Origin: a virus
Taxonomy: Duplodnaviria; Heunggongvirae; Uroviricota; Caudoviricetes
Length of the DNA stretch: 12,419 nt
IMG/VR virus record: IMGVR_UViG_2909246061_000007
Coordinates: 1-12,419 of that record
Direction: 5' to 3' (one strand)
Part shown: positions 259 to 12,419 of the stretch, piece after piece
Numbering within the stretch: the first letter of the stretch is position 1
Layout of the letters: every line of letters starts with the position of its first letter
Made by a program: the position numbers and the translations under genes
The notes under the pieces: generated by a model
What the model was told of the DNA's origin: nothing
Seen by the model: only the letters and a program-made list of their open reading frames with translations
Database searches by the model: none

Positions 259-269
259 TCGTCTGACAA

Positions 270-300
270 GCCCTCGCGTTGAGGGCTTTACTGATTTTTT
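270..300 (+). terminator. rho-independent terminator downstream of grxA (between convergent grxA and ybjM)
   Basis: Inverted repeat GCCCTC (270-275) / GAGGGC (281-286) with 5-nt loop, followed by a T-rich tract (TTTACTGATTTTTT). The ybjM stop codon (288-290) lies within the tail. Confidence 0.55.
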
Positions 301-665
301 CTGTGCTGTGGTTTAAACAAACTACTGATAAATAAGAAACACAGTGCCCCCAGCGCACACCAGAACACCGCGCTTAGTAACCATGCCAGCTCTTGCCAGA
401 ATGAGCGCGTCGGTGAAAAAAACAGCCGCATAATGAGCATCGAACAGGGTGCCGCCAGCATTGCGCCAAACAGAGGTTTCAGGACTTCTCTACGCTGTGA
501 AAAGAAGCTGGCGACTGCTCCAGGAAGAATGAAAAATAGCAAGCCGATTTCAGGATGCCCGGCAGCCCGAAAAGCGCCTTTCATGTGCGTCGCCAGAAAA
601 AGGCACACCACAATGAAGAGGACAAAACAGCAGATTGCCCCCGCCCAACGTTGTTTATGTTTCAC
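288..665 (-). CDS. ybjM: inner membrane protein YbjM (125 aa, multi-pass hydrophobic)
   Basis: 125-aa highly hydrophobic ORF convergent with grxA; length, sequence and position between grxA and ybjL match E. coli ybjM synteny. Confidence 0.8.
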   Translation of the reverse strand: MKHKQRWAGAICCFVLFIVVCLFLATHMKGAFRAAGHPEIGLLFFILPGAVASFFSQRREVLKPLFGAMLAAPCSMLIMRLFFSPTRSFWQELAWLLSAVFWCALGALCFLFISSLFKPQHRKNQ

Positions 666-934: not shown

Positions 935-2620
935 GTGAATATAAACGTCGCCGAATTGTTAAATGGGAATTACATTCTGTTATTATTTGTGGTCCTCGCG
1001 CTTGGGCTATGTCTCGGAAAGTTACGACTTGGTTCGATCCAACTGGGTAATTCCATTGGCGTTTTAGTCGTATCGCTGTTATTAGGCCAACAACATTTCA
1101 GCATTAACACCGATGCGCTTAATCTTGGCTTTATGCTGTTTATTTTCTGCGTCGGGGTCGAAGCCGGACCGAACTTTTTTTCCATTTTTTTTCGCGATGG
1201 GAAAAATTACCTAATGTTAGCACTGGTGATGGTTGGCAGTGCGCTGGTGATCGCCTTAGGGTTAGGTAAGCTGTTTGGCTGGGATATTGGCCTGACGGCC
1301 GGTATGTTAGCAGGCTCTATGACGTCGACACCGGTTCTGGTCGGTGCTGGCGATACACTGCGTCATTCCGGCATGGAAAGCAGGCAGCTCTCACTGGCAC
1401 TGGATAATCTGAGCCTCGGGTATGCCTTAACCTATTTAATCGGTCTGGTGAGTTTGATTGTTGGTGCGCGTTACTTGCCGAAATTGCAGCATCAGGACTT
1501 ACAGACCAGCGCCCAGCAAATCGCCCGCGAACGTGGCCTGGACACTGATGCCAACCGTAAGGTTTATTTACCGGTGATCCGCGCCTATCGCGTCGGCCCG
1601 GAACTGGTGGCCTGGACCGACGGCAAAAATCTGCGTGAACTGGGTATTTATCGACAAACCGGCTGCTACATTGAACGTATTCGACGTAACGGGATTCTGG
1701 CAAATCCAGACGGTGATGCCGTGCTACAAATGGGCGATGAAATAGCGTTGGTAGGCTATCCCGACGCCCATGCCCGACTCGATCCCAGCTTCCGTAACGG
1801 TAAAGAAGTTTTCGATCGTGACCTTCTCGACATGCGTATCGTCACTGAAGAAGTGGTCGTTAAAAACCATAACGCTGTAGGTAAACGTCTCGCACAACTG
1901 AAGTTGACCGATCACGGTTGCTTCCTTAACCGCGTCATTCGTAGCCAGATTGAGATGCCGATAGATGACAACGTCGTGCTTAACAAAGGTGACGTTTTAC
2001 AAGTCAGCGGCGATGCCCGCCGCGTAAAAACCATCGCCGATCGCATCGGCTTTATCTCGATTCACAGCCAGGTCACTGACCTGCTGGCATTCTGCGCCTT
2101 CTTTGTTATTGGGCTGATGATCGGGATGATCACCTTCCAGTTCAGCACATTCAGTTTCGGCATGGGGAACGCTGCCGGGTTGTTATTCGCCGGAATTATG
2201 CTGGGCTTTATGCGTGCTAACCACCCGACCTTCGGTTACATTCCGCAGGGTGCATTAAGCATGGTGAAAGAGTTCGGCTTGATGGTGTTTATGGCAGGCG
2301 TTGGTCTGAGCGCCGGTAGCGGTATTAATAACGGCCTGGGCGCGATTGGCGGTCAGATGTTGATTGCCGGATTGATTGTCAGTCTGGTGCCCGTGGTTAT
2401 CTGTTTCTTGTTCGGTGCTTATGTATTGCGAATGAACCGCGCGCTGTTGTTCGGCGCAATGATGGGCGCACGTACCTGCGCGCCGGCAATGGAGATCATC
2501 AGTGATACAGCTCGCAGTAACATCCCGGCGCTGGGCTATGCGGGCACCTATGCAATCGCCAACGTCCTGCTGACGCTGGCAGGGACAATCATCGTCATGG
2601 TATGGCCAGGATTAGGATAA
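935..2620 (+). CDS. ybjL: putative AAE-family transporter YbjL (561 aa, GTG start)
   Basis: 561-aa ORF with hydrophobic N- and C-terminal membrane domains flanking a soluble central region, consistent with a duplicated transporter with RCK_C/TrkA-C-like domains. Sequence recognised as E. coli YbjL; GTG start at 935. Confidence 0.92.
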
Positions 2621-2732
2621 AACTGAAGTTGCCCTGAAAATGAAATTTTTTTGCACAACCGCAGAACTTTTCCGCAGGGCATCAGTCTTAATTAGTGCCA
2701 CTGCTTTTCTTTGATGTCCCCATTTTGTGGAG

Positions 2733-2775
2733 CCCATCAACCCCGCCATTTCGGTTCAAGGTTGATGGGTTTTTT
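2733..2775 (+). terminator. rho-independent terminator, about 113 bp downstream of ybjL
   Basis: Perfect 10-bp inverted repeat CCCATCAACC (2733-2742) / GGTTGATGGG (2760-2769) followed by TTTTTT (2770-2775). The 17-nt loop is long but contains internal CCG/CGG pairing. Confidence 0.6.
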
Positions 2776-2855
2776 GTTGCCTGAAATTTAAGCTGTTTAA
2801 AATCATGATGTTAGAAACACTGTTTTTTAACGATGGCGACAAAATGGCGGCAGCG

Positions 2856-3074
2856 TCAAAGAGAGAGCGCCACCTGTCCTGATTTCATTGGATGCGGCTG
2901 AACCGGATTTGACTCTTTTGGCGTTGCAATCGAACGAACAAAAGTTTCATGGGTAACAAAAGTATGGCTGCAGTTAATGTTCTGGCACTGGTTGTAACGC
3001 TCTTTGGTCAATGAAGATACCTGAAAACTGCTGCGAGTATGGGCGGCACTTCCACACAGTGGGCAAATCATCAT
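2856..3074 (-). CDS. ogr: Ogr/Delta-type zinc-finger late transcription activator
   Basis: 72 aa from the ATG at 3074 (MMICPLCGSAAHTR...ERYNQCQNINCSHTF): C-x2-C ... C-x4-C zinc-finger spacing and the ERY-QCQN-NC core typical of P2 Ogr. SD-like GGGGAGAA precedes the start. Lies at the 3' side of gene D as in P2. Confidence 0.85.
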   Translation of the reverse strand: MMICPLCGSAAHTRSSFQVSSLTKERYNQCQNINCSHTFVTHETFVRSIATPKESNPVQPHPMKSGQVALSL

Positions 3075-3164
3075 TTTTCGAGTTCTCCCCATTTTTGCTA
3101 AATTCACAATAATGACACCGCATTATTCCATTTTGCAAACTTAAAAGTTCTCCATTGCGAAGAA

Positions 3165-4016
3165 TCATTCCATTTCGAAATCATCAATCCTCACTTCAAG
3201 CTCCAGACTGGTTGTAAAACCGTTATCGGGGCTGACGGTATGCGTCAGAGTCGTAATGGTCCATTCCGCATCATCTATCGGCTGTTTAAAGCCACTGACT
3301 TTCACTGGCATTTCCGTGTAGAGATCTGCCCGACCTTCTGCCAGTTGTAGCGAGAATGACGCAACGCCGCGTTGCAGGCGTTCCCACTGCATTTTCGCCG
3401 CCCGTTCGGCGTTGCTCCGGTTGGCATAGGTGCGATTAAGTACCAGCACGTTTTCATCTGTACCCACCAGGTAATCGCCCTGCTTCGCTTCGCGGCTAAG
3501 GACAGTCAGTACCACCTCTGCAGGTGCCGGGCTGGTTGCACTGGCATCCGCCACCCGACCGTCGGCGCTTCGGGCATGAAATTCATAAGCTGCGGTTGGC
3601 CCCGCAACCGAAAGCCCTTCAAAAGCCGCAGGCACACGCAGGCGTAACGCTTCATCGCTTTCCATCACAGCAGCAACGGGTGGCACAGCGTCATTATCAG
3701 CAGGCGTCACCGTCAGGCGTTTCACGTTGTAATTGGCAGCGAGCTGGTCCAGATCGCTCCCTATGGCATAAGCCACCATCACCGCCTGCGCGGCTTCGTT
3801 AATGCGCTGGCGCAGGAGCAACTCACGATAAGCGTTCTCCTGCAACAATTTGGTAATGGGTTCAGATTCCAGTTCCAGCGTACGCATCACTGCTTCCTGC
3901 TCATCTTTCGGATGAAGCGCTACAAATTCTGCCTTGCGTTCGGCAAGCAGCGTCTCAAAGTCCGGCACATCCACAATCTGCGGCGCAGGTAACTGCGAAA
4001 GGTCAATCACTGCCAT
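3165..4016 (-). pseudogene. in-frame chimeric ORF: baseplate protein J (N-terminal part) fused to tail protein D (C-terminal part)
   Basis: N-terminus (MAVIDLSQLPAPQIVDVPDFETLLAERKA...) resembles P2 gpJ. C-terminus (...ANRSNAERAAK..WERLQRGVA...VKVSGFK...DNGFTTSLELEV) resembles the C-terminus of P2 gpD. Implies deletion of I-H-G-FI-FII-E-T-U. AGGAG SD upstream of the ATG at 4016; junction roughly 3440-3520. Confidence 0.7.
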
Positions 4017-4362
4017 TCTCTGCTCCTGTTGATACGGAAAGGGACACAGGCACACCGTTATTCCGCCGCCCGGTCAGCTCCACCACCATTGAACCGTCAA
4101 AATTGCTGTTGATGGTGATGGAATCCAGCGTCAGCCGTGGCTCCCAGCGACTCAGCGCCACATACACTGCCGACATGACCTGCAGGCGTAACGCCGGATT
4201 TTGTGGCTGGTCTATCAGTGCCGACAGCAGGGAACCATATTCACGGCGAGCAATGCGGCTACCCTGCGGCGTCAGCAGAATGTCCCGCACCGACTGGCGC
4301 AGATGGTCAATATCAGTAATGGCTTTACCGCTGGTATTGTTCATCCCGCTATAAAGCGTCAT
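4003..4362 (-). CDS. W: baseplate assembly protein W (gp25-like)
   Basis: 119-aa ORF with the pattern DIDHLRQSVRDILLTPQGSRIARREYGSLL...DQPQNPAL...WEPR, matching my recollection of P2 gpW. ATGA overlap with the upstream V fragment; its 3' end overlaps the J start. Confidence 0.82.
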   Translation of the reverse strand: MTLYSGMNNTSGKAITDIDHLRQSVRDILLTPQGSRIARREYGSLLSALIDQPQNPALRLQVMSAVYVALSRWEPRLTLDSITINSNFDGSMVVELTGRRNNGVPVSLSVSTGAENGSD

Positions 4363-4745
4363 ACCGGGCCTCCGGTTGTGTCGCCGCCTTTCAGGACGCC
4401 AGTATGCTGATGTGCATCAACCACAATTCCGTTAGAACTCATTGCACCGCCGCCCTGGGTAACACCACCATTCATCACTACTTCGCTGTTAATACGCGTG
4501 CGGTCAGCCTCCAGCACAAACTCACTGGTTTTCATGGTGATGTTGTCAGCGGCCTCAATGACCATTGATTTGATGCCCCTGACATACCAGCGCCCGGTGG
4601 CGGGTTCGTATTCAAACCAGCCACCGTCAGGATGTTCTGTCACGCAGGCGTCCGCCGACGTCGACGGTGGCGCGAACTGATTCGAATAGATGGCGGGTAA
4701 CGCAAAGGCGGTTTCCAGATTGCCGCCCAGACTCAGCAGCACCAC
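4359..4745 (-). pseudogene. baseplate spike protein V, C-terminal fragment (N-terminal roughly 80 aa missing)
   Basis: ORF aligns with the C-terminal two-thirds of P2 gpV (LSLGGNLETAFALPAIYS...; glycine-rich C-terminal tip HTGVLKGGDTTGGPV). No V N-terminal domain is present upstream; the upstream ORF is instead a lysB-like fragment. Confidence 0.7.
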
Positions 4746-5041
4746 CTGCTCACCTTCCGATGGTCGCCACCATGTGCGGGCATTATCCGGTGTTGTCGTT
4801 GTCTCAGCAGCGCGCTGGTCTGTTCTGCTTCGGCATAGAGCCGCGCCTGCTCCCGGTTATTGGTTTCAGTCAGAATGGACAGGCTGATAAGCTGGCTGTT
4901 GCTCTTTGCCAGTGCCTGGCTTTTGCTCTGCAGCTCGTCTGCCTGCGTGCTGATGGTCTGGCTGGCATCAGCCAGCCGCCACGTCTGCCAGCCCAGCGCC
5001 GCCAGTAATAACGCCAGCATAACCAGCAGCAACCGGTTCAT
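4733..5041 (-). pseudogene. LysB/Rz-like i-spanin, N-terminal fragment (3' part deleted, so the embedded o-spanin is presumably lost)
   Basis: N-terminal TM segment (MNRLLLVMLALLLAALGW) followed by a coiled-coil-like Q/A/L-rich region, in the lysB position with ATGA overlap to lysA (5038-5041). The C-terminal about 20 aa look like unrelated read-through near the junction with V. Confidence 0.55.
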
Positions 5042-5415
5042 GCTGCTACCTGTTGCGCCATCTGATTACGGGTGATCCAGAAGGCAATAACGGTCAGTAG
5101 ATAAAAGACCAGGGTAATAGCCCACCCCGTCCAGGCGAGACTTACGACAATCAGCAATCGCATCACCCAGCTGATAAATACGTTTTCTTTTCGGGTAATG
5201 GTCTTCAGCAAAGATGCCCTCAACTCCTGCCAGAGCGGGCCATTCTTAATTAACGCAGCCAGTGCTACCGGAATTACCGCCCATGTCAGTAAACAGGCTA
5301 CCCAAACGCCGGACGCTGCCAGTACCGGAAAAATCCCCTGGGGATACACCATTGCTGCGATTAACAGCGCCATCCATAACATCAGAAACAGCCCGCTGAT
5401 TAATTTCTTTTTCAT
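5038..5415 (-). CDS. lysA: LysA-like lysis-timing membrane protein (about 125 aa, 4 predicted TM segments)
   Basis: Start assigned to the ATG at 5415 (MKKKLISGLF...), immediately after the K stop codon. Very hydrophobic, in the position of P2 lysA between K and lysB. Confidence 0.65.
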   Translation of the reverse strand: MKKKLISGLFLMLWMALLIAAMVYPQGIFPVLAASGVWVACLLTWAVIPVALAALIKNGPLWQELRASLLKTITRKENVFISWVMRLLIVVSLAWTGWAITLVFYLLTVIAFWITRNQMAQQVAA

Positions 5416-5416
5416 T

Positions 5417-5929
5417 TCAGTTTGCTCCCTGTAAACACCAGGCCATCTCCCGCGCACGGCGGTTATCCAGCCCCTGATTAAACACACCTTTCACATAAAC
5501 CCAGCGCGGCAACTGTCGGCACGCATCCGCCCAGCGCCGCTGATTGAGTAATTTCACCAGCGTGGAACTGCAGGCATTGCCCGTTCCCACGTTGAAGGCA
5601 AACGACACCGCAGTGTCATATACCTTCTGCGGCGGCTGTTGTTTCACACACCTTTCCAGCGCCCGCTCCACACGCAGCACGTTGGAAATCAGTCCTTCTG
5701 CTGCCTGTCGTTCCGTAATGGTTTTGCCGGGAATGACGCCTGACGTGTTACCAATGCCGTCGGTCCAGACGCCCGCGCTGCACTGATACGGCTGCAGACG
5801 ACAGCCTTCGTAATCGGCAATCAGTTTCAGCCCCTCCACGGAGGTGTGAAGCTGCTGAAACCCCGGCAGCGTGGCAGCAATAGCCAGCACGGCCCCGACA
5901 AGGCAGCGTTTAACGATTGATGGATTCAT
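5417..5929 (-). CDS. K: endolysin, T4-lysozyme-like (GH24) with probable SAR-type N-terminal hydrophobic segment
   Basis: 170-aa ORF with an N-terminal hydrophobic stretch (CLVGAVLAIAATLPG) and E-x8-D-x5-T-like catalytic spacing (YEGCRLQPYQCSAGVWTDGIGNT). GGGAGGA SD upstream; in the position of P2 gene K. Confidence 0.8.
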   Translation of the reverse strand: MNPSIVKRCLVGAVLAIAATLPGFQQLHTSVEGLKLIADYEGCRLQPYQCSAGVWTDGIGNTSGVIPGKTITERQAAEGLISNVLRVERALERCVKQQPPQKVYDTAVSFAFNVGTGNACSSTLVKLLNQRRWADACRQLPRWVYVKGVFNQGLDNRRAREMAWCLQGAN

Positions 5930-6125
5930 AGTCCTCCCGCGAGATCTGCCCGTCGCGCAGAAGCTGGTAGGCTTTGTGTTTGTAGTACCAGTTGATAGCC
6001 AGCATCAGCACACCAATCATCAGGCCGCCCAGCGTTGAGGCATCCTTGATGGACAAATCGCCCAGCCAGGCCAGCACAACGGCGATGCAGTACGTGATAA
6101 AGGCGCTGATTCGCTCAAGCGTCAT
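5910..6125 (-). CDS. holin (class II / pinholin-like, 71 aa, two TM segments)
   Basis: Small ORF directly upstream of the endolysin with 20-nt overlap; two hydrophobic helices and a charged C-terminal tail, at the gene Y position. Confidence 0.6.
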   Translation of the reverse strand: MTLERISAFITYCIAVVLAWLGDLSIKDASTLGGLMIGVLMLAINWYYKHKAYQLLRDGQISREDYESINR

Positions 6126-6128
6126 AAT

Positions 6129-6251
6129 TCAGTCCCATAGCTGGACGGTCTGCACGGTGGTGGTGGTCGGAATGTCCGGCAGCTCCACCTGCAGCCCGTG
6201 AGGTAAAAAGGGGCCATAGCCCGCATTGCTGAAATGCTGGGCGAGAAAGTT
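6129..6251 (-). pseudogene. tail protein X, C-terminal fragment
   Basis: Last about 30-40 codons (...FLPHGLQVELPDIPTTTTVQTVQLWD) match the C-terminus of P2 gpX (LPHG..VELPD....LWE). The upstream part of the ORF is unrelated antisense read-through into P. Implies loss of O-N-M-L. Confidence 0.55.
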
Positions 6252-7907
6252 GCAACCGTTCACAGCTGGAAAAAACGCGACAAGTGGGGTGACTATGGGC
6301 CGCTGGATCAGATGCAGCTCACCACCGCCGCACGCTACTGCCAGCTTATTATGAAGGAGCACAAAGAAGGGAAAGATTTCAAAGAGATTGACCTGCTGGC
6401 GCGCCAGTCGGAACGCCACGCGCGGATCGGCAAGTTTAACAATGGCGGCAACGAAGCCGACTTAAACCCAAACGTCGCCAACCGCAACAAAGGCCCGCGC
6501 CGTCAGCCGGAAAAGAATGTTTTCACCGATGAACAGATTGAGAAGCTGGAAGAAATCTTCCATTCCTCCATGTTCAACTACCAGCGCCACTGGTGGGAAG
6601 CCGGAAAAACCAACCGCATCCGCAACCTGCTGAAGTCACGCCAGATCGGCGCGACCTTTTACTTTGCCCGTGAAGCCCTGATTGACGCCCTGCTGACCGG
6701 ACGTAACCAGATTTTCCTTTCCGCCAGCAAGGCACAGGCCCACGTCTTTAAGCAGTACATCATCGACTTCGCCAAAGAAGTGGAAGTGGAGCTGAAAGGC
6801 GATCCGATGGTGCTTCCCAACGGGGCCACGCTTTACTTCCTCGGCACCAATGCCCGCACGGCCCAGAGTTACCACGGCAACCTGTATCTGGATGAATATT
6901 TCTGGATACCGAAATTCCAGGAGCTGCGCAAAGTGGCTTCCGGTATGGCTATTCACAAAAAATGGCGACAGACCTATTTTTCCACGCCATCCAGCCTGAC
7001 ACACAGTGCTTATCCGTTCTGGTCCGGTGCACTGTTCAACCGTGGGCGCAACAAAGCCGATAAGGTGGACATCGACCTGTCCCACAGCAACCTGGCCCCC
7101 GGCCTGCTCTGCGCAGACGGGCAGTACCGCCAGATAGTCACCGTGGAAGATGCGGTGCGCGGCGGCTGTAACCTGTTCGACCTTGACCAGTTGCGCATGG
7201 AGTACAGCCCGGACGAATACCAGAACCTGCTGATGTGCGAGTTTGTGGACGATCTCGCGTCCGTGTTCCCGCTCAGCGAGCTGCAGGCGTGCATGGTGGA
7301 CAGCTGGGAAGTCTGGACCGACTTTCATGCACTGGCACTGCGCCCATTTGGCTGGCGCGAAGTGTGGATCGGTTATGATCCGGCGAAAGGTACGCAGAAC
7401 GGCGACAGTGCCGGATGCGTGGTGGTGGCACCGCCAGCCGTGCCGGGCGGCAAGTTCCGCATTCTTGAGCGTCACCAGTGGCGCGGGATGGACTTTCGCG
7501 CCCAGGCTGACGCCATCAAAAAACTGACCGAACAGTACAACGTGACCTATATCGGCATCGACTCAACCGGTGTTGGTCACGGGGTTTATGAGAACGTGAA
7601 AGCGTTCTTTCCTGCCGTCCGGGAGTTTGTCTACAACCCCAACGTTAAAAACGCCTTGGTACTCAAGGCCTACGACATTATCAACCACCGCCGTCTGGAG
7701 TTTGACGCCGGGCACACCGACATTGCGCAGTCATTCATGGCAATCCGTCGCGCCACCACCGCCAGCGGCAACCGCCCAACCTATGAAGCCAGCCGCAGCG
7801 AAGAAGCCAGCCATGCCGATCTGGCCTGGGCAACAATGCACGCACTGTTTAACGAACCGCTGCAGGGCGAATCCGCCAATACCAGCAATATTGTGGAGAT
7901 TTTTTGA
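6234..7907 (+). CDS. P: terminase large (ATPase) subunit P, probably N-terminally truncated
   Basis: 557-aa ORF with strong resemblance to P2 gpP from about residue 30 onward (ARYCQL...EIDLLARQSERHARIGK...KSRQIGATFYFAREALIDAL...NLLMCEFVDD...SEEASHADLAWA). True start uncertain (ATG 6234 or 6312); the 5' end abuts the X fragment, so the native promoter is probably deleted. Confidence 0.85.
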   Translation: MLGEKVATVHSWKKRDKWGDYGPLDQMQLTTAARYCQLIMKEHKEGKDFKEIDLLARQSERHARIGKFNNGGNEADLNPNVANRNKGPRRQPEKNVFTDEQIEKLEEIFHSSMFNYQRHWWEAGKTNRIRNLLKSRQIGATFYFAREALIDALLTGRNQIFLSASKAQAHVFKQYIIDFAKEVEVELKGDPMVLPNGATLYFLGTNARTAQSYHGNLYLDEYFWIPKFQELRKVASGMAIHKKWRQTYFSTPSSLTHSAYPFWSGALFNRGRNKADKVDIDLSHSNLAPGLLCADGQYRQIVTVEDAVRGGCNLFDLDQLRMEYSPDEYQNLLMCEFVDDLASVFPLSELQACMVDSWEVWTDFHALALRPFGWREVWIGYDPAKGTQNGDSAGCVVVAPPAVPGGKFRILERHQWRGMDFRAQADAIKKLTEQYNVTYIGIDSTGVGHGVYENVKAFFPAVREFVYNPNVKNALVLKAYDIINHRRLEFDAGHTDIAQSFMAIRRATTASGNRPTYEASRSEEASHADLAWATMHALFNEPLQGESANTSNIVEIF

Positions 7908-8380
7908 TGGGAAAGAGTAAGAAAAACCGCGCTGCGGCGACGAATCAGCTCCAGCATAAAAGCCAAACTTCAGCCGAAGCATTCAGCTTCGGTGATCCCA
8001 TTCCAGTACTTGACCGCCGCGAACTGCTGGACTATGTGGAATGCGTACAAACAGATCGCTGGTATGAGCCACCAGTGAGTTTCGACGGGCTGGCGCGTAC
8101 CTTTCGCGCTGCCGTGCATCACAGTTCACCAATTGCGGTGAAATGCAACATTCTGACCAGTACCTACATCCCTCACCCGCTGCTCAGCCAGCAGGCTTTT
8201 TCACGTTTTGTGCAGGACTATCTGGTATTTGGTAACGCCTACCTGGAGAAACGCACGAACCGCTTCGGTGAAGTTATCGCCCTTGAGCCTGCTCTGGCAA
8301 AATACACCCGACGCGGGTTAGACCTGGATACCGCACCTGCAGCAACACGCCCGATCTCTGCGGTTGCACTCATGACATAA
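7907..8380 (+). pseudogene. Q: portal protein Q, N-terminal fragment (about 145 of roughly 340 aa)
   Basis: ATG at 7907 overlaps the P stop TGA (7905-7907). The N-terminal region (FSFGDPIPVLDRRELLDYVEC...WYEPPVSFDGLAR...AVHHSSPI...KYTRRG) is portal-like; the ORF then diverges and stops at 8380, overlapping the cII-like ORF on the opposite strand. Confidence 0.72.
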
Positions 8381-8661
8381 TGCGGCAGTTTCTCTTTTGC
8401 CACCTCATTAATCGGTACACATGGCAGGCAGTGAATCTGTGCCAGAAAGCCATCTACCAGCGTTGAATCTTCAGTCAGATCGGTAAGCAACCAGATTTCT
8501 GGTGCGGTTAATAAATGAGGTTGAGCTGGGTTCAGCTTGTTCCGCAGAATCTGTACATTCATGCCTGCACGTTCTGCCAGTCGCACCAGGTTGTGGCGCA
8601 GTGCGAATGCACGACAGGCTTCGTCAAAATGTGGATGTTTGGAAACTTGGTAATCAAACAT
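8239..8661 (-). pseudogene. cII: 186-type CII-like regulator, 3'-truncated and reading through into antisense of the Q fragment
   Basis: ATG at 8661 preceded by a [57 protein letters not shown]...[26 protein letters not shown] matches the phage 186 CII family (HTH). Resemblance is lost after about 115 codons, near 8320-8345. Confidence 0.68.
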
Positions 8662-8693
8662 AGTCGACACCCCTGATGTATCCCAAAATGGAA

Positions 8694-8915
8694 CTAGTTG
8701 AATACAACATTGCAATCAGTAAGTGCATCAACGGTAAGAGCAGCAAGGTTGATCATTACCTTTTCTCTTTTCTTGTCTTTCCGAAGGCGATGGCGAGGGA
8801 TGCGACCATCAGCCAGCATATCGTTGATGGTGTCGATAGAAAGACCAGTAAGTTCGCTATAACGCTCAATTGTGACGTGTGGCGTATTCAGAGTTATTGA
8901 AATGTTAGGGGTCAT
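8694..8915 (-). CDS. Apl/Cox-like small DNA-binding protein (73 aa; excisionase / lytic-side switch regulator)
   Basis: ATG at 8915 with an AGGAGA SD. Small basic protein with HTH-like segment ([25 protein letters not shown]), divergent from cI and upstream of cII, i.e. the 186 apl position. Confidence 0.6.
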
Positions 8916-9010
8916 GATGCAACATCTCCTATTGGCTTGTGGTGAGCCTGTAGTAATCGTGACAAGTACCCAAACGGGGACAAAATTGATACTAGGATCG
9001 CAAAAGAGAT
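8916..9010. promoter_or_regulatory. lysis-lysogeny switch region between divergent apl-like and cI genes (lytic and lysogenic promoters and operators expected)
   Basis: 95-bp intergenic region between divergently oriented regulator genes; position is analogous to the pR/pL region of 186. Individual -10/-35 hexamers could not be assigned confidently by eye. Confidence 0.5.
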
Positions 9011-9607
9011 ATGTCAACATCAAAGTACCCAAATGAGATCAAAATAAATCCCAATAAAGGTGGTAAGGCTGCGATTGAGCGATTAGTCGAAGCTTATGGC
9101 TTTACGACACGACAGGCTTTAGCTGATCACTTGGAAGTATCAAAAAGCACTCTGGCGAACAGGTATTTGCGGGATACGTTTCCTGCAGACTGGATAATCC
9201 AATGTGCTCTTGAAACAGGAACCTCACTGAAATGGTTAACCACCGGGCAAGGCCTTAAGCAAAGCTCGCTGACAGCAGCTACAGAAGAGCTTGCCAAGTT
9301 TCGCCTTACCGCAGGCAAAATGATTGAAGATGGTTCATATGTCTTCGATTCATCATTTCTTCCTGCAAATCTTTCATCACCAATTGTTATTCAGGATGGG
9401 CTCGTCACATACATTTGTGATCAAAAATTTTCTGAAGTACTTGATGGGCACTGGTTAATCAACATCGACGGAACCTATTCCATTCGAAAAATCACAAAGC
9501 TTCCAAAAGGTATGATTAAAATTACAAGTACAGAGAATAGCTTTGAATGTGCATTTTCTGATATTGAAGTAGTTGCTTGTATAAGAAGTACAATAGTTTC
9601 AAATTAA
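9011..9607 (+). CDS. cI: 186-type CI immunity repressor
   Basis: 198-aa ORF with an N-terminal HTH (ERLVEAYGFTTRQALADHLEVSKSTLANRY...CALETGTSLKWLTTGQG) and a C-terminal region (HWLINIDGTYSIRKITKLP...FECAFSDIEV) that match my recollection of phage 186 CI across both domains. Confidence 0.85.
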   Translation: MSTSKYPNEIKINPNKGGKAAIERLVEAYGFTTRQALADHLEVSKSTLANRYLRDTFPADWIIQCALETGTSLKWLTTGQGLKQSSLTAATEELAKFRLTAGKMIEDGSYVFDSSFLPANLSSPIVIQDGLVTYICDQKFSEVLDGHWLINIDGTYSIRKITKLPKGMIKITSTENSFECAFSDIEVVACIRSTIVSN

Positions 9608-9627
9608 TATAGTAAAAGGATTTAAAA

Positions 9628-11304
9628 ATGAATTCATTTTCCATCGTTATATTCTTATTAGCATTTCTCGCCCCCATTCTAGCTGTAATATTATTTAAGC
9701 AAAGCAAAAAACATAAAGCGGCTATAGATACCTTGACAGCTAACAACATAGCCCTTTCCAACCAACTGAAAGAAAATCAAGAAGAATTAGCACAGACTGT
9801 ACGAGATCTATCAGAGCTTGAAGGACGAGCTGCACCATTATGGCAATACGTAGAATTGCACAGCGCAGTGATGGAAGCAGAGAATAAGATAAAAAATGCA
9901 GACTCAATAGCCAGGCAAAAAATAGAAGAAGCCCAAATAAAGGCTGCTAAGACAGTAAACGAAGCAAATTATCAAGCTCAGATAAAAATAAGCAACGCTA
10001 ATAGCGAAGCTATAGCAATTACTAAAGACGCTCGCGATGCACGCCTGAAAGCTAAAGAACGTCTTGATAATGCCAATAGTAAAGCAAATGAGCTGATCTC
10101 AAATGCTAATGACAATGCAGTGAAAATTATTTCCGATGCAGAAGAAAGAGCAAAAGAGATTGCTGGTTCAGCATATGAAGCTAAAGAGTTTGCAGAAAAA
10201 TATGAAGCAGTTGCCAAATCAATGAAAAATAAAATTGAAGGTTATGGTGATGAATGGATCATCCCTAACCGTAGCGTTCTCGATGAATTGGCAGAAAATT
10301 ATGAGTTTACAGATGCAGGCAAGGAATTACAAAAAGCCAGGGAGTTAACAAAATCATTAATAAAAACTAATAAAGCTGCTTCGTGTGATTATGTTGAACA
10401 AAACAGGCGTAATACTGCTATCAACTTTGTTTTAGATGCCTTCAATGGAAGAGTTGACAGTATTTTATCAAAAGTCAAACACAACAATTTTGGAAAACTT
10501 TCCCAAGAGATAAAAGATGCGTTTCAACTTGTAAATTACAATGGTTCTGCCTTTAGGTCCGCAAAAATAAGTGACATCTATCTTCAAGCTCGACTCAACG
10601 AGCTAAAATGGGGTGTTGCAGTTAATGAAATTATGCTCGAAGAAAAAGAAGAGCAAAGAAGGATTAAAGAACAACTTCGTGAAGAGGAAAGAGCTCGTAG
10701 GGAGTATGAAAAAGCGATAAAAGAAGCTGAAAAAGAAGAGAAAGCTATTCAGCAAGCTATAAATAAAGCAACAAAAGAGCTTATGCTTGCAAATGAAGAA
10801 CAACGCTTAGCTTTAGAGCAAAAAATAGCTGAACTACAGTTAAAATATGAAGAAGCTGAAGCTAAAAACCAACGAGCTATTTCTATGGCTCAACAAACTA
10901 GATCAGGCCACGTTTATATAATTAGTAATATTGGCTCATTTGGCGAAGATGTATATAAAATTGGAATGACACGCCGCCTTGAACCACTTGATCGTGTTCG
11001 TGAACTCGGTGATGCTAGTGTTCCTTTTTCGTTCGATGTTCATGCGATGATTTATAGTGATGATGCACCATCATTAGAAAATCATCTGCATAAAGTCTTC
11101 AACGAAAAACAGGTCAATAAAATTAACTCACGAAAAGAGTTTTTCAACGTAAATATTAAAGAAATTAAGTCTGTTATTGAAGATATGAACATCAACGCAC
11201 AATGGACAATGTTTGCGGAAGCGAAAGAATATAGAGAGTCACTGGCGATTGAGCAAGAGCGCAAAGCAGCAACTTCCGCCAACGATGAACTGCATGTTGC
11301 TTAG
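9628..11304 (+). CDS. membrane-anchored coiled-coil protein with C-terminal GIY-YIG-like (T5orf172/MUG113-type) domain; candidate defense/exclusion cargo gene
   Basis: 558-aa ORF with an aaagga SD 6-11 nt upstream. Residues 1-24 form a hydrophobic anchor; about 30-200 and 330-420 are E/K/A-rich coiled coil; about 205-330 is a globular region; about 427-510 is GHVYIISN-x9-VYKIGMTRR...E...RKEFF (GIY-x10-YIG-R...E...EFF pattern). Visibly AT-rich compared with flanking phage genes. Confidence 0.8.
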   Translation: MNSFSIVIFLLAFLAPILAVILFKQSKKHKAAIDTLTANNIALSNQLKENQEELAQTVRDLSELEGRAAPLWQYVELHSAVMEAENKIKNADSIARQKIEEAQIKAAKTVNEANYQAQIKISNANSEAIAITKDARDARLKAKERLDNANSKANELISNANDNAVKIISDAEERAKEIAGSAYEAKEFAEKYEAVAKSMKNKIEGYGDEWIIPNRSVLDELAENYEFTDAGKELQKARELTKSLIKTNKAASCDYVEQNRRNTAINFVLDAFNGRVDSILSKVKHNNFGKLSQEIKDAFQLVNYNGSAFRSAKISDIYLQARLNELKWGVAVNEIMLEEKEEQRRIKEQLREEERARREYEKAIKEAEKEEKAIQQAINKATKELMLANEEQRLALEQKIAELQLKYEEAEAKNQRAISMAQQTRSGHVYIISNIGSFGEDVYKIGMTRRLEPLDRVRELGDASVPFSFDVHAMIYSDDAPSLENHLHKVFNEKQVNKINSRKEFFNVNIKEIKSVIEDMNINAQWTMFAEAKEYRESLAIEQERKAATSANDELHVA

Positions 11305-11362
11305 CAATGTATGTTTCATAGTAATCACACATTGATTACTGGTTGTATATACAGTTAAATTT

Positions 11363-11387
11363 AGCCCTCTGATATGAGGGCTTTTTT
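11363..11387 (+). terminator. rho-independent terminator immediately upstream of int; stem overlaps the int ribosome-binding site
   Basis: AGCCCTC (11363-11369), loop TGATAT, GAGGGCT (11376-11382), then TTTTTT (11382-11387) directly followed by the int ATG at 11388. Confidence 0.65.
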
Positions 11388-12419
11388 ATGGCAGTACGAA
11401 AACTCACCACAGGAAAATGGCTTTGCGAATGTTACCCCGCCGGACGTAGTGGACGTCGTGTGCGTAAACAATTCGCCACCAAAGGCGAAGCTCTGGCTTT
11501 TGAGCGTCACACGATGGAAGAAACCGAAGCAAAGCCCTGGCTGGGTGAATCAGTGGATCGTCGAACACTGAAAGACGTGGTTGAACTATGGTTCAAACTA
11601 CATGGTAAATCTCTGACAGCTGGGCAGCATGTCTATGACAAATTGCTGTTGATGGTTGACGCTCTGGGCAATCCCCTTGCAACCGATCTCACCTCTAAAA
11701 TGTTTGCCCACTATCGAGATAAACGTCTGACAGGAGAGATCTACTTCAGCGAAAAATGGAAGAAAGGAGCAAGCCCGGTCACCATTAACCTGGAGCAAAG
11801 CTATCTAAGTAGTGTTTTTAGCGAACTATCCCGCCTGGGCGAATGGTCGTATCCGAACCCACTGGAGAACATGCGAAAATTCACCATCGCAGAAAAAGAG
11901 ATGGCATGGCTTACCCATGAGCAGATTGTTGAATTGCTGGCTGATTGCAAACGTCAGGACCCAATTCTGGCACTGGTAGTTAAGATATGCTTAAGCACAG
12001 GCGCACGTTGGCGTGAAGCCGTAAATCTTACCCGCTCACAGGTGACCAAATACCGAATTACCTTTGTAAGAACGAAGGGGAAGAAAAACAGAAGCATCCC
12101 TATCAGTAAAGAGCTTTACGAAGAGATCATGGCGCTTGATGGGTTCAATTTCTTTACAGACTGCTATTTTCAATTTTTATCCGTGATGGAAAAAACGTCT
12201 ATCGTGCTCCCTCGCGGTCAACTGACACACGTTCTGCGCCATACGTTTGCGGCGCACTTCATGATGTCGGGTGGAAATATCCTGGCCTTACAAAAAATTC
12301 TCGGGCATCACGATATAAAAATGACTATGCGTTACGCACATCTGGCACCGGATCACCTGGAAACTGCATTACGGTTTAATCCGCTGGCAACACTACCAAC
12401 ATCAATAGCAAGTTTTTGA
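11388..12419 (+). CDS. int: P2-family tyrosine integrase
   Basis: 343-aa ORF ending with TGA at the last base of the window. Contains tyrosine-recombinase catalytic regions (LSTGARWREA..., HVLRHTFAAHFMMSGGNILALQKILGHHDIKMTMRYAHL with R, H-x-x-R, and Y). Position after cI matches P2/186 organisation. Confidence 0.9.
   Translation: MAVRKLTTGKWLCECYPAGRSGRRVRKQFATKGEALAFERHTMEETEAKPWLGESVDRRTLKDVVELWFKLHGKSLTAGQHVYDKLLLMVDALGNPLATDLTSKMFAHYRDKRLTGEIYFSEKWKKGASPVTINLEQSYLSSVFSELSRLGEWSYPNPLENMRKFTIAEKEMAWLTHEQIVELLADCKRQDPILALVVKICLSTGARWREAVNLTRSQVTKYRITFVRTKGKKNRSIPISKELYEEIMALDGFNFFTDCYFQFLSVMEKTSIVLPRGQLTHVLRHTFAAHFMMSGGNILALQKILGHHDIKMTMRYAHLAPDHLETALRFNPLATLPTSIASF

Follow-up and report, generated by a model that had tools for sequence, protein, structure and literature searches.

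A divergent member of the SNIPE (PD-lambda-1) defence family, recognised by sequence between cI and int of a decayed 186-like prophage

The 12,419-nt stretch of DNA analysed here (the window; virus record IMGVR_UViG_2909246061_000007) carries a low-GC gene whose 558-aa product, judging from its sequence, is a member of the already described SNIPE / PD-lambda-1 family and not a new system. We read it, with a probability of roughly 0.8, as a SNIPE defence protein, that is, a membrane-tethered nuclease which would cut siphovirus DNA at injection and act as a direct defence. PD-lambda-1 was found by Vassallo et al. in 2022 (PMC9519451) as RCP76574.1 of strain ECOR26, with a coding sequence of 1503 nt, and was renamed SNIPE by Saxton et al. 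(preprint of 2025, bioRxiv 10.1101/2025.11.03.685801; Nature 2026, PMC13190303). The reference SNIPE is an inner-membrane GIY-YIG nuclease, encoded by one gene, which cuts siphovirus DNA during genome injection (PMC13190303).

The gene and its family

The gene and its leader are placed as follows.

9628..11304, + strand: SNIPE / PD-lambda-1 family gene, ATG start, 558 aa plus stop codon (open reading frame list, PADLOC, PHROG, RefSeq)
9608..9627, + strand: 20-nt leader of the cargo gene, including the Shine-Dalgarno sequence AAGGA (sequence reading)

The Shine-Dalgarno sequence lies at 9616-9620, 7 nt 5' of the ATG of the cargo gene and 8 nt 3' of the stop codon of cI (9605-9607). The region of the open reading frame has 35% GC, against about 55% for the prophage, and comparison with a 94.5%-identical allele in an intact prophage gives a dN/dS of 0.046, with zero nonsynonymous changes across residues 201-422. 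The gene is hence under strong purifying selection, and a chance reading frame is ruled out by this ratio, the low-GC stretch and profile matches far over threshold. The 558-aa frame claimed in the initial annotation is therefore real and has the anatomy given for it there.

Whether this architecture belonged to a named family had been left open in that annotation, and the PADLOC check supplies the answer. The PD-Lambda-1 profile PDLC03976 matches with 400 bits (E=4.1e-120), residues 116-550 of the query aligning to positions 37-481 of the 491 in the profile, and a second profile, PDLC03977, covers residues 108-551 of the 558 aa (E=4.1e-116). PHROG 1847 matches the same protein with E=3.6e-132, and identical proteins are named 'DUF4041 / SNIPE associated domain-containing protein' in RefSeq. 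The hallmarks of the family that can be read from sequence are present, namely a PADLOC profile match almost end to end, a DUF4041 domain, a T5orf172/MUG113 domain with the catalytic Glu and a predicted transmembrane (TM) helix. The gene also stands singly, flanked here by cI and int; the reference-type locus has other neighbours, an HD-domain gene and genes of the ybcN side. The earlier proposal of a single-gene, membrane-tethered, nucleic-acid-targeting anti-phage effector thus gains support from the PADLOC match and from the published function of the family, by which such a role is predicted.

In comparisons with the reference, RCP76574.1 was represented by a 500-aa E. coli protein (L002), which has all nine of the residues named in the SNIPE paper (E223, N250, L253, W257, E264, K305, I308, T319 and E414). 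Residues 265-555 of the window protein align to L002 196-487 with 49% identity (E=2e-76), and hhalign gives a probability of 100% with 50% identity over 265-546 (282 aligned residues). The alignment maps the reference E414 to E484, Y360 to Y430, Y373 to Y443 and R379/R380 to R449/R450. The two proteins have the same order of parts: a short periplasmic N-terminus, a TM helix with a basic cluster, a helical region, DUF4041, an E/K/R-rich linker, the nuclease domain and a short tail. Both genes are prophage-borne and low in GC. However, any similarity of residues 1-264 to the reference is undetectable by pairwise alignment and by hhalign, and the window protein is the longer one (558 against 500 aa), the part N-terminal to the conserved segment being about 70 aa longer. 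The DUF4041 segment, which aligns with reference residues 196-252, is only 29% identical. Sites of defence-enhancing mutations in the reference are substituted (E223 is S292, W257 is K327, K305 is Q375 and T319 is N389), as is the crosslinking site N250, which is Q320. The 558-aa protein is, on this sequence comparison, a divergent SNIPE subtype. It is present in 165 of 5426 complete E. coli genomes, with orthologues at 82-85% identity across the Enterobacteriaceae, and no experimental work on it was found in the literature searched.

Membrane anchor and N-terminal stalk

The N-terminal part of the protein comprises two features.

9637..9696, + strand: single transmembrane helix, aa ~4-23, by hydropathy, with three residues before it and the basic cluster KQSKKHK after it
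9700..10236, + strand: variable N-terminal helical stalk, the 'adapter' region of the family, aa 25-203 (composition, motifs, periodicity, AF2 helices)

The sole hydrophobic segment of the protein spans residues ~4-23, with a Kyte-Doolittle 19-residue maximum of 2.99, and all windows above 1.6 begin at residues 1-9. The initial annotation had put one N-terminal TM helix at residues 1-24, in agreement with this prediction. As only three residues precede the helix and KQSKKHK follows it, an N-out / C-in topology is predicted. The reference SNIPE has the same anchor design (TM ~6-24, then KRIKK), and its N-out topology was determined with PhoA-LacZalpha insertions and its membrane localisation seen (PMC13190303); a single TM helix is a feature of the reference that 59% of SNIPE homologues share. 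Many gene calls place the start of the window protein at Met82, by which the TM helix is lost, and annotation-based surveys relying on such calls would therefore miss the membrane anchor.

The stalk is rich in A, E, K and N (34, 21, 20 and 16, respectively, of the 176 residues in 25-200), contains three NAN motifs (at residues 124, 149 and 160) and is modelled by AF2 as helices 2-67 and 71-203 with pLDDT 60-85. The peak of hydrophobic periodicity is at 3.61 residues, compared to the 3.5 of a heptad, which gives no support to a coiled coil of heptad type in residues 80-200. Of the E/K/A/N-rich coiled coil with NAN motifs described earlier, the composition and the motifs hold; with this periodicity the term 'coiled coil' is approximate and 'amphipathic helical stalk' is safer.

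Matches of this region to coiled-coil families in NCBIfam were rejected as a family assignment, being far below threshold (DivIVA_Wag31 with 23 bits against a cutoff of 260, SMC, ATP synthase b/E), and so were the Pfam matches of residues 1-210, all below cutoff (DUF6377, DivIVA, V-ATPase_G_2, ATP-synt_B). A search of residues 1-205 against 1.84 billion representatives returned 38 matches at E<=0.001. Six of the ten examined have DUF4041, four of these also T5orf172/MUG113; the others are one DivIVA-domain protein and three proteins without a significant Pfam match. There was no sign among these ten that the stalk is a module shared with other effectors.

DUF4041, linker and nuclease domain

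The C-terminal half of the protein comprises the following.

10240..10617, + strand: globular middle domain, aa ~205-330, Pfam DUF4041; homology to the reference starts at aa 265
10426-10593, + strand: Pfam DUF4041 (PF13250), aa 267-322, 46.6 bits against a cutoff of 27
10618..10896, + strand: E/K/R-rich linker helix, aa 331-423, AF2 helices, 48% identical to the reference linker
10906..11187, + strand: T5orf172 / MUG113 (GIY-YIG clan) nuclease domain, aa 427-520, Pfam, 70% identical to the reference domain
11077..11079, + strand: codon of E484, counterpart of the reference catalytic E414 by alignment mapping

Pfam T5orf172 matches residues 427-520 with 61.8 bits (cutoff 20) and MUG113 matches 443-520 with 70.7 bits (cutoff 22.3); together with DUF4041, all three are above their gathering cutoffs in the profile search that had been proposed as a check. 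The GIY-YIG-type motifs named in the initial annotation were all found at their places in the nuclease domain: GHVYIISN at 427-434, VYKIGMT at 442-448, RR at 449-450, LENHLH at 483-488 (with E484) and KEFF at 503-506.

A full-length AF2 model, built from an alignment of 16 sequences with members 82-100% identical, has a mean pLDDT of 54.6, the long helices being moderately confident (linker helices 317-387 and 390-423, pLDDT 63-80) and both globular domains below 50. Residues 416-558 modelled as a single sequence gave a mean of 50.4. Both low-confidence models suggest a beta-beta-alpha-beta-alpha order across the nuclease domain, which is not counted as evidence, and due to the low pLDDT the folds of the globular domains rest on the profile matches and not on the models. 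In a PDB sequence search the full protein had no match at E<=0.01, and the nuclease domain had chance matches alone at E<=10 (a DARPin and an RNA polymerase).

The T5orf172-type domain also occurs in other settings. The PADLOC candidate PDC-S57 (E=3e-20 over residues 424-546) and the free-standing phage T5orf172 / MUG113 proteins phrog_16524 and phrog_36333 have this C-terminal domain in common with the window protein, but the likeness is confined to the nuclease domain, without TM helix, stalk or DUF4041.

Cargo inserted between cI and int

The host element is a decayed 186-like (P2-family, myovirus) prophage, integrated at rybB, in which most of the structural and replication genes have been lost and pseudogenes are numerous. 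The cargo gene has these neighbours.

8959..8986, + strand: promoter-like site 5' of cI, candidate counterpart of the 186 lysogenic promoter pL (consensus scan)
9017-8989, - strand: stronger promoter-like site facing the candidate pL (consensus scan)
9011..9607, + strand: cI immunity repressor, 198 aa, immediately 5' of the cargo (Pfam Phage_CI_repr 8e-32, Phage_CI_C 4e-27; RefSeq 'phage repressor protein CI')
11307..11387, + strand: conserved structured backbone element at the right edge of the cargo (alignment of five backbones with different cargo)
11388..12419, + strand: tyrosine integrase, 343 aa, 3' of the cargo (Pfam Int_N 3e-32, Phage_integrase 7e-22)

A low-GC cassette of 1.7 kb lies exactly between cI and int, bounded by the stop codon of cI and the conserved element upstream of int. 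In the annotation of phage 186, cI and int abut in one lysogenic operon (pL followed by cI, int and orf69), and 78 nt separate the two in ESSI2_ev040. These arrangements mark the gene as inserted cargo, which bears out the moron between cI and int postulated from the sequence. The arrangement of cI, cargo and int recurs in the intact phages KP12 and vB_EcoM-813R9 and in a UPEC132 prophage. Among 5426 E. coli genomes the cI allele of the window is always accompanied by the cargo, and an 'empty' site with this allele directly beside int was found in none.

In sister phages the slot is empty or occupied by other cargo, including, in sister prophages, a PDC-S20 KAP NTPase and genes of unknown function, and the SNIPE gene is accordingly dispensable for the phage. 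This bears on a reading in which the protein is a selfish or phage-serving T5orf172 protein, like a homing endonuclease or a DNA-binding regulator, that aids replication, integration or satellite competition of the 186-like phage. Such domains recur widely among homing-endonuclease-like genes of phages and among nuclease-derived regulators (e.g. PMC10448857 and the ICP1/PLE papers), and the gene does lie between two lysogeny genes. Yet the full architecture, with TM helix, stalk, DUF4041 and nuclease, fits the defence-family model and goes beyond the nuclease domain alone, the occupants of the slot in sister phages are unrelated, and the reference family member resides in an unrelated lambdoid prophage. 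We consider this reading very unlikely. A GIY-YIG homing endonuclease in the strict sense, a soluble nuclease with a DNA-recognition domain in or next to its target gene or intron, was rejected on account of the TM anchor with DUF4041 and because the gene occupies a slot for cargo, flanked by cI and int, and does not lie inside a host gene; homing endonucleases are not known to be membrane-anchored.

The decay of the prophage, and the fact that the exact decayed arrangement is common to only 3 of the 5426 genomes, would also be expected of a silent relic, in which the gene has neither expression nor function. However, the reading frame and its Shine-Dalgarno sequence are intact, as are cI, int and the candidate pL; many other strains encode a copy with 100% identity; and the low dN/dS argues against the loss of function. 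A relic is highly improbable.

The candidate pL and the site opposite face each other, as do the annotated pR and pL of phage 186, and by this analogy the former may function as the lysogenic promoter; the scan returned three promoter-like sites against a mean of 7.6 in shuffled sequence, i.e. fewer than expected. The terminator scan gave no terminator-like site between cI and the cargo gene, and the latter is probably co-transcribed with the repressor. The element upstream of int contains a GC hairpin (11363-11382) and a T-run ending at the int ATG, scored as a terminator-like hit, and has an RNA fold z of -4.4, with weak covariation (2 of 14 pairs).

Proposed mode of action

The mechanism suggested here for the window protein follows that of the characterised E. 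coli SNIPE. The single N-terminal helix would anchor the protein in the inner membrane with nearly all of it in the cytoplasm, and the long helical stalk would hold DUF4041 and the C-terminal GIY-YIG nuclease beneath the membrane. By analogy the protein may be produced constitutively in the lysogen, the membrane tether keeping the nuclease harmless to the chromosome. When a siphovirus injects its genome, DUF4041 would touch the conduit of tape measure protein and the incoming DNA, which the nuclease would then cut, and the infected cell would survive in an exclusion-like direct defence.

For the reference, E414A and deltaDUF4041 each abolish defence, E414A also removes toxicity, the deltaTM protein is toxic and causes double-strand breaks, and radiolabelled phage DNA is cut during injection (PMC13190303). 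Its DUF4041 binds both DNA and the tape measure protein, W257R boosts defence, sensitivity is restricted to siphoviruses with myoviruses not targeted, and prophage induction is unaffected (PMC13190303). Cells infected in its presence survive and reach confluence, unlike those with the abortive-infection control PD-lambda-3 (PMC13190303).

These observations bear on the 'abortive infection or exclusion' envisaged in the initial annotation. By analogy with the family's published mode, a direct defence at DNA entry with surviving cells, the exclusion-like half of this proposal would stand and the abortive half would not. In an abortive system the nuclease would be released or activated upon infection and degrade host and phage DNA alike, the death of the cell protecting the population. 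The nuclease is inherently able to cut the chromosome, as the toxic deltaTM reference demonstrates, and the unrelated N-terminal region of the window protein leaves scope for other regulation. Reference cells nevertheless live, phage DNA being cut during injection only, and the window protein retains both the TM anchor and the complete C-terminal effector half. Abortive infection is thus an improbable explanation compared to SNIPE-type direct defence.

How far the details of SNIPE-type defence extend to the 558-aa protein is a separate matter. The N-terminal region of the family is thought to set the partner and phage specificity, and with an unrelated N-terminus the association with ManYZ and the phage range of the reference are not transferable to the window protein. 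Given in addition the changed residues at positions implicated in tape-measure binding, its partner may differ from ManYZ or the tape measure protein. A further, tentative reading, which we regard as possible but rather doubtful, is that the enterobacterial 558-aa subtype is a functionally distinct SNIPE lineage, with an inner-membrane entry route other than ManYZ, another phage range and a role as a repressor-linked weapon against competing siphoviruses. It draws on the unrelated and ~70-aa-longer stalk with its weak DivIVA / ATP-synthase-b-like character, and on the changed DUF4041 positions, including a natural Lys (K327) at the site of W257R. The idea of such a weapon stems from the location of the gene, within the lysogenic operon of a prophage whose class, the myoviruses, is insensitive to the reference SNIPE.

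Relation to other systems and significance

Zorya and Kiwa are likewise membrane-localised, act at genome entry with a DNA-targeting effector and were grouped with SNIPE in a 2026 review (PMC12904381), but each is encoded by several genes, divides sensing and effector function between different proteins and has other folds, KwaB of Kiwa binding DNA without cutting it (PMC12904381). PADLOC gave no match to Zorya or Kiwa here. The defence genes that P2-like prophages carry as cargo (old, tin, fun; hotspots of Rousset et al. 2022, PMC9122126; Vassallo 2022; bioRxiv 10.64898/2026.02.27.708500) are similarly low-GC accessory genes at fixed slots. The window gene, however, lies outside the two classical P2 hotspots (gpA-portal and Z/fun), inside the lysogenic operon, and the location also differs from that of the reference-type locus, between the nin region and ren-P-O of a lambdoid prophage.

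The gene is named directly by PADLOC, a standard defence-annotation run, and the mechanism of its family has been published (Nature 2026). What the window adds is a SNIPE variant that is natural and well populated, has an entirely different N-terminal 'adapter' and could serve in domain swaps that address specificity, and an example of a defence gene located within the lysogenic operon of 186-like phages, between cI and int.

Family assignment and anatomy of the cargo protein

The gene situated between cI and int encodes an architecture that belongs to a named and mechanistically characterised defence family, a name already attached to the exact protein in RefSeq. Two PD-Lambda-1 models of PADLOC match the protein nearly end to end (E=4.1e-120 and 4.1e-116), in PHROGs it falls into phrog_1847 (E=3.6e-132), and many complete E. 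coli genomes contain an identical protein, named ‘DUF4041 domain-containing protein’ in RefSeq and ‘SNIPE associated domain-containing protein’ in the newer annotations. PD-lambda-1 was first recovered in a functional selection (Vassallo et al. 2022, PMC9519451) and was renamed SNIPE by Saxton et al. (bioRxiv 10.1101/2025.11.03.685801; Nature 2026, PMC13190303). The initial annotation had suggested that the gene could encode a membrane-tethered, nucleic-acid-targeting anti-phage effector and had proposed HMM and PADLOC searches as a check; these matched PD-Lambda-1, DUF4041 (residues 267-322), T5orf172 (427-520) and MUG113 (443-520), the Pfam domains all above gathering cutoffs, and the nearly full-length PD-Lambda-1 match supports that reading.

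The 558-aa ORF (window 9628-11304, + strand) starts with ATG, is preceded by a Shine-Dalgarno sequence (AAGGA) 7 nt 5' of the start and lies only 20 nt beyond the preceding stop codon. The surrounding stretch has a GC content of 34-38%, against ~55% in the adjoining prophage DNA. The protein has a single hydrophobic segment (residues ~4-23; Kyte-Doolittle 19-residue maximum 2.99), with no second segment exceeding 1.6 in 19-residue windows, and this segment is followed by the basic cluster KQSKKHK. The predicted ORF with one N-terminal TM helix is thereby borne out, as is the C-terminal GIY-YIG-type domain, the motifs of which were located where expected:

Motifs in the C-terminal domain (protein residues)
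427-434: GHVYIISN
442-448: VYKIGMT
449-450: RR
483-488: LENHLH
503-506: KEFF

The proposed N-terminal coiled coil holds in part. Residues 25-200 are indeed enriched in Ala, Glu, Lys and Asn and contain three NAN motifs (at 124, 149 and 160), but a heptad pattern is not supported: within residues 80-200 the hydrophobic periodicity has its maximum at 3.61 residues rather than 3.5, and ‘amphipathic helical stalk’ is therefore a safer term than ‘coiled coil’. Profile matches of the stalk (DivIVA, ATP synthase b, V-ATPase G/E) were all sub-threshold. A search of residues 1-205 against 1.84 billion representative proteins gave 38 matches at E<=0.001, ten of which were examined: six carry DUF4041 (four of them T5orf172/MUG113 as well), three have no significant Pfam match and the remaining one has a DivIVA domain. 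Neither the profiles nor these ten of 38 matches gave any sign that the stalk was acquired as a module from a known host protein or that other effectors share it. Structural confirmation of the protein was not obtained, AF2 giving pLDDT <50 for both globular domains, and no PDB relative was detectable by sequence search. Met82 is the start in a database cluster of 164 sequences (P0059, 477 aa; 100% identity in the part held in common with the window protein), and this start drops the TM helix (residues 1-81, window 9628-9870). Such gene calls would mask the membrane anchor in annotation-based surveys.

Comparison with the reference SNIPE

The 500-aa protein of E. coli 730V1 was used as reference, a stand-in of equal length for RCP76574.1 of ECOR26 (1503 nt; DUF4041 197-252, T5orf172 357-448; Vassallo et al. 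2022, PMC9519451), and contains all nine residues given by number in the SNIPE paper (E223, N250, L253, W257, E264, K305, I308, T319 and E414). The window protein can be aligned to it only from residue 265 onwards (BLASTP: 49% identity, window 265-555 versus reference 196-487, E=2e-76; hhalign: probability 100%, residues 265-546), neither method detecting similarity in residues 1-264. Identity differs by segment, from 29% in DUF4041 and 36% in the tail to 48% in the linker helix and 70% in the nuclease domain. The catalytic E414 of the reference corresponds to E484, and the window protein also retains the two tyrosines of GIY/YIG and both arginines (Y430, Y443, R449, R450). The part preceding the conserved segment is ~70 aa longer in the window protein, while the extreme N-terminus has the same plan in both: 3-5 residues, a TM helix of ~20 residues and a basic cluster. 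On these sequence comparisons the protein is a clear member of the SNIPE family, and a separate subtype. This subtype is common: of 5426 complete E. coli genomes, 165 have it, versus ~143 with the reference type, and 558-aa orthologues (82-85% identity) were found in genera such as Citrobacter, Salmonella, Klebsiella and Enterobacter and their relatives. The reference-type gene of 730V1 resides in a lambdoid prophage, between nin-region genes and ren-P-O, adjoined by a 515-aa HD-domain protein with no PADLOC match (730V1 locus L002, 6984-10393).

SNIPE is constitutively located at the inner membrane, with the N-terminus periplasmic and the remainder cytoplasmic; its defence is abolished by E414A or by deletion of DUF4041, while the protein devoid of its TM helix is toxic and causes chromosomal double-strand breaks (Saxton et al., PMC13190303). 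Only siphoviruses are sensitive, and prophage induction is unaffected (Saxton et al., PMC13190303). By analogy, a SNIPE-like mode of action is the best-supported reading for the window protein: anchored in the inner membrane, and sparing the chromosome as long as it stays anchored, it would cleave the DNA of siphoviruses where this is injected, by means of DUF4041 contacts both to that DNA and to the tape-measure conduit. Abortive infection, one of the modes suggested in the initial annotation, has a low probability as it is disfavoured by the data on the reference SNIPE; infected cells bearing SNIPE survive (Saxton et al., PMC13190303), and SNIPE is therefore a direct defence.

The ManYZ partner and the phage range of the reference cannot, on sequence grounds, be transferred to the window protein, because the adapter and several defence-enhancing positions differ. 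Across the family, conservation is lowest and length varies most in the N-terminal region, which is the proposed specificity ‘adapter’, and mutations of the reference at E223, W257, K305 and T319 raised defence against Bas14, W257R being a gain-of-function change (Saxton et al., PMC13190303). The corresponding residues of the window protein are S292, K327 (basic, like W257R), Q375 and N389. With its distinct adapter and DUF4041 surface, this widespread 558-aa subtype may have a different membrane partner and phage range.

The host prophage and the variable cI-int slot

The window covers grxA, ybjM and ybjL and then prophage DNA up to the stop codon of the integrase gene. The sRNA gene rybB is found at 2700-2778 (Rfam RF00110, 105 bits). 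An imperfect direct repeat of 26 nt (2765-2790) begins within the 3' end of rybB, with a second copy just past int and right before rcdA (15869-15894 of L001, the locus that extends beyond int). From this repeat pair, a 186-like prophage appears to have integrated at the rybB 3' end. The element spans only ~10.1 kb. It is a heavily decayed 186/P2-like prophage (window 2850-9010). Intact are ogr, gpW, the lysis genes (holin, lysozyme, lysA), cI, the cargo gene and int, while the annotation gives baseplate J and V, lysB, tail X, terminase, portal and cII as fragments, joined via internal deletions. This exact arrangement occurs in only three of the 5426 genomes.

The block of cI, cargo and int is also present in the intact UPEC132 prophage (gene 94.5% identical in DNA, protein 97%) and in phages vB_EcoM-813R9 and Klebsiella phage KP12. 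In the annotated record of phage 186, cI abuts int in one ‘lysogenic operon’, with pL and pE as its promoters and its terminator after orf69. As in 186, two promoter-like sites face each other in the window between cI and the apl-like gene, and a terminator scan found no terminator-like site between cI and the cargo gene; the lysogen therefore probably transcribes the cargo gene together with the repressor, which would suit the finding that SNIPE is constitutively at the membrane. On its right side the cargo has a sharp edge: an element of ~80 nt starts directly after its stop codon and is kept upstream of int whatever the cargo, or with none.

Structured element and cI-int slots of related prophages
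Window 11307-11387: structured element directly 5' of the int ATG, conserved in five backbones with differing cargo
ESSI2_ev040 (L005) 3077-3154: empty slot, 78-nt gap
E. coli C (L007) 4623-4814: 63-aa ORF only
NC101 (L008) 3394-4921: 60-aa ORF and KAP NTPase, the latter matching PADLOC candidate PDC-S20 (E=2e-171)
Klebsiella phage 4LV2017 (L004) 2749-4405: 349-aa ORF and 201-aa ORF

Three features make up the element: the inverted repeat ATGTATG...CATACAT, the palindrome ACTG...CAGT and, at 11363-11382, a GC hairpin with a T-run after it. Its RNA fold has a z-score of -4.4 with compensatory change in two of 14 pairs, and the stem of the ESSI2_ev040 hairpin differs in sequence yet still pairs. 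It may be a terminator or attenuator limiting int expression from the lysogenic transcript.

The cargo thus varies at the cI-int slot of 186-like prophages, and the slot itself is also not new. A homing-endonuclease or regulatory role of the window gene is improbable, being disfavoured both because the full-length architecture is that of SNIPE and because the slot is dispensable. Neither 4LV2017 ORF has a Pfam match and the 349-aa ORF has no PADLOC match; these genes are unexplained candidates. The 198-aa cI allele (window 9011-9607) was never found without adjoining SNIPE-type cargo (0 in 5426 E. coli genomes), despite a closely related int in about 1100 of the same genomes, and immunity type and cargo therefore seem to move as a single module. 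In intact relatives of this prophage, the classical P2 hotspot, which lies between gpA and the portal gene, contains a second defence gene:

UPEC132 prophage (L003) 352-1761, - strand: PD-T7-1 (E=1e-196)
Phage vB_EcoM-813R9 (L006) 1853-3004, - strand: HEPN / PD-Lambda-3_B-like protein

Selection on the cargo gene

The window gene and the UPEC132 allele differ by 77 synonymous and 16 nonsynonymous changes (dN/dS = 0.046), which indicates strong purifying selection. Of the 16 nonsynonymous changes, about 13.5 fall within residues 1-200 and none within 201-422, so the scant protein variation is concentrated in the adapter region, as predicted by the family-wide analysis in the SNIPE paper. That the gene is a dead relic is unlikely, given this selection signal and its intact expression signals.
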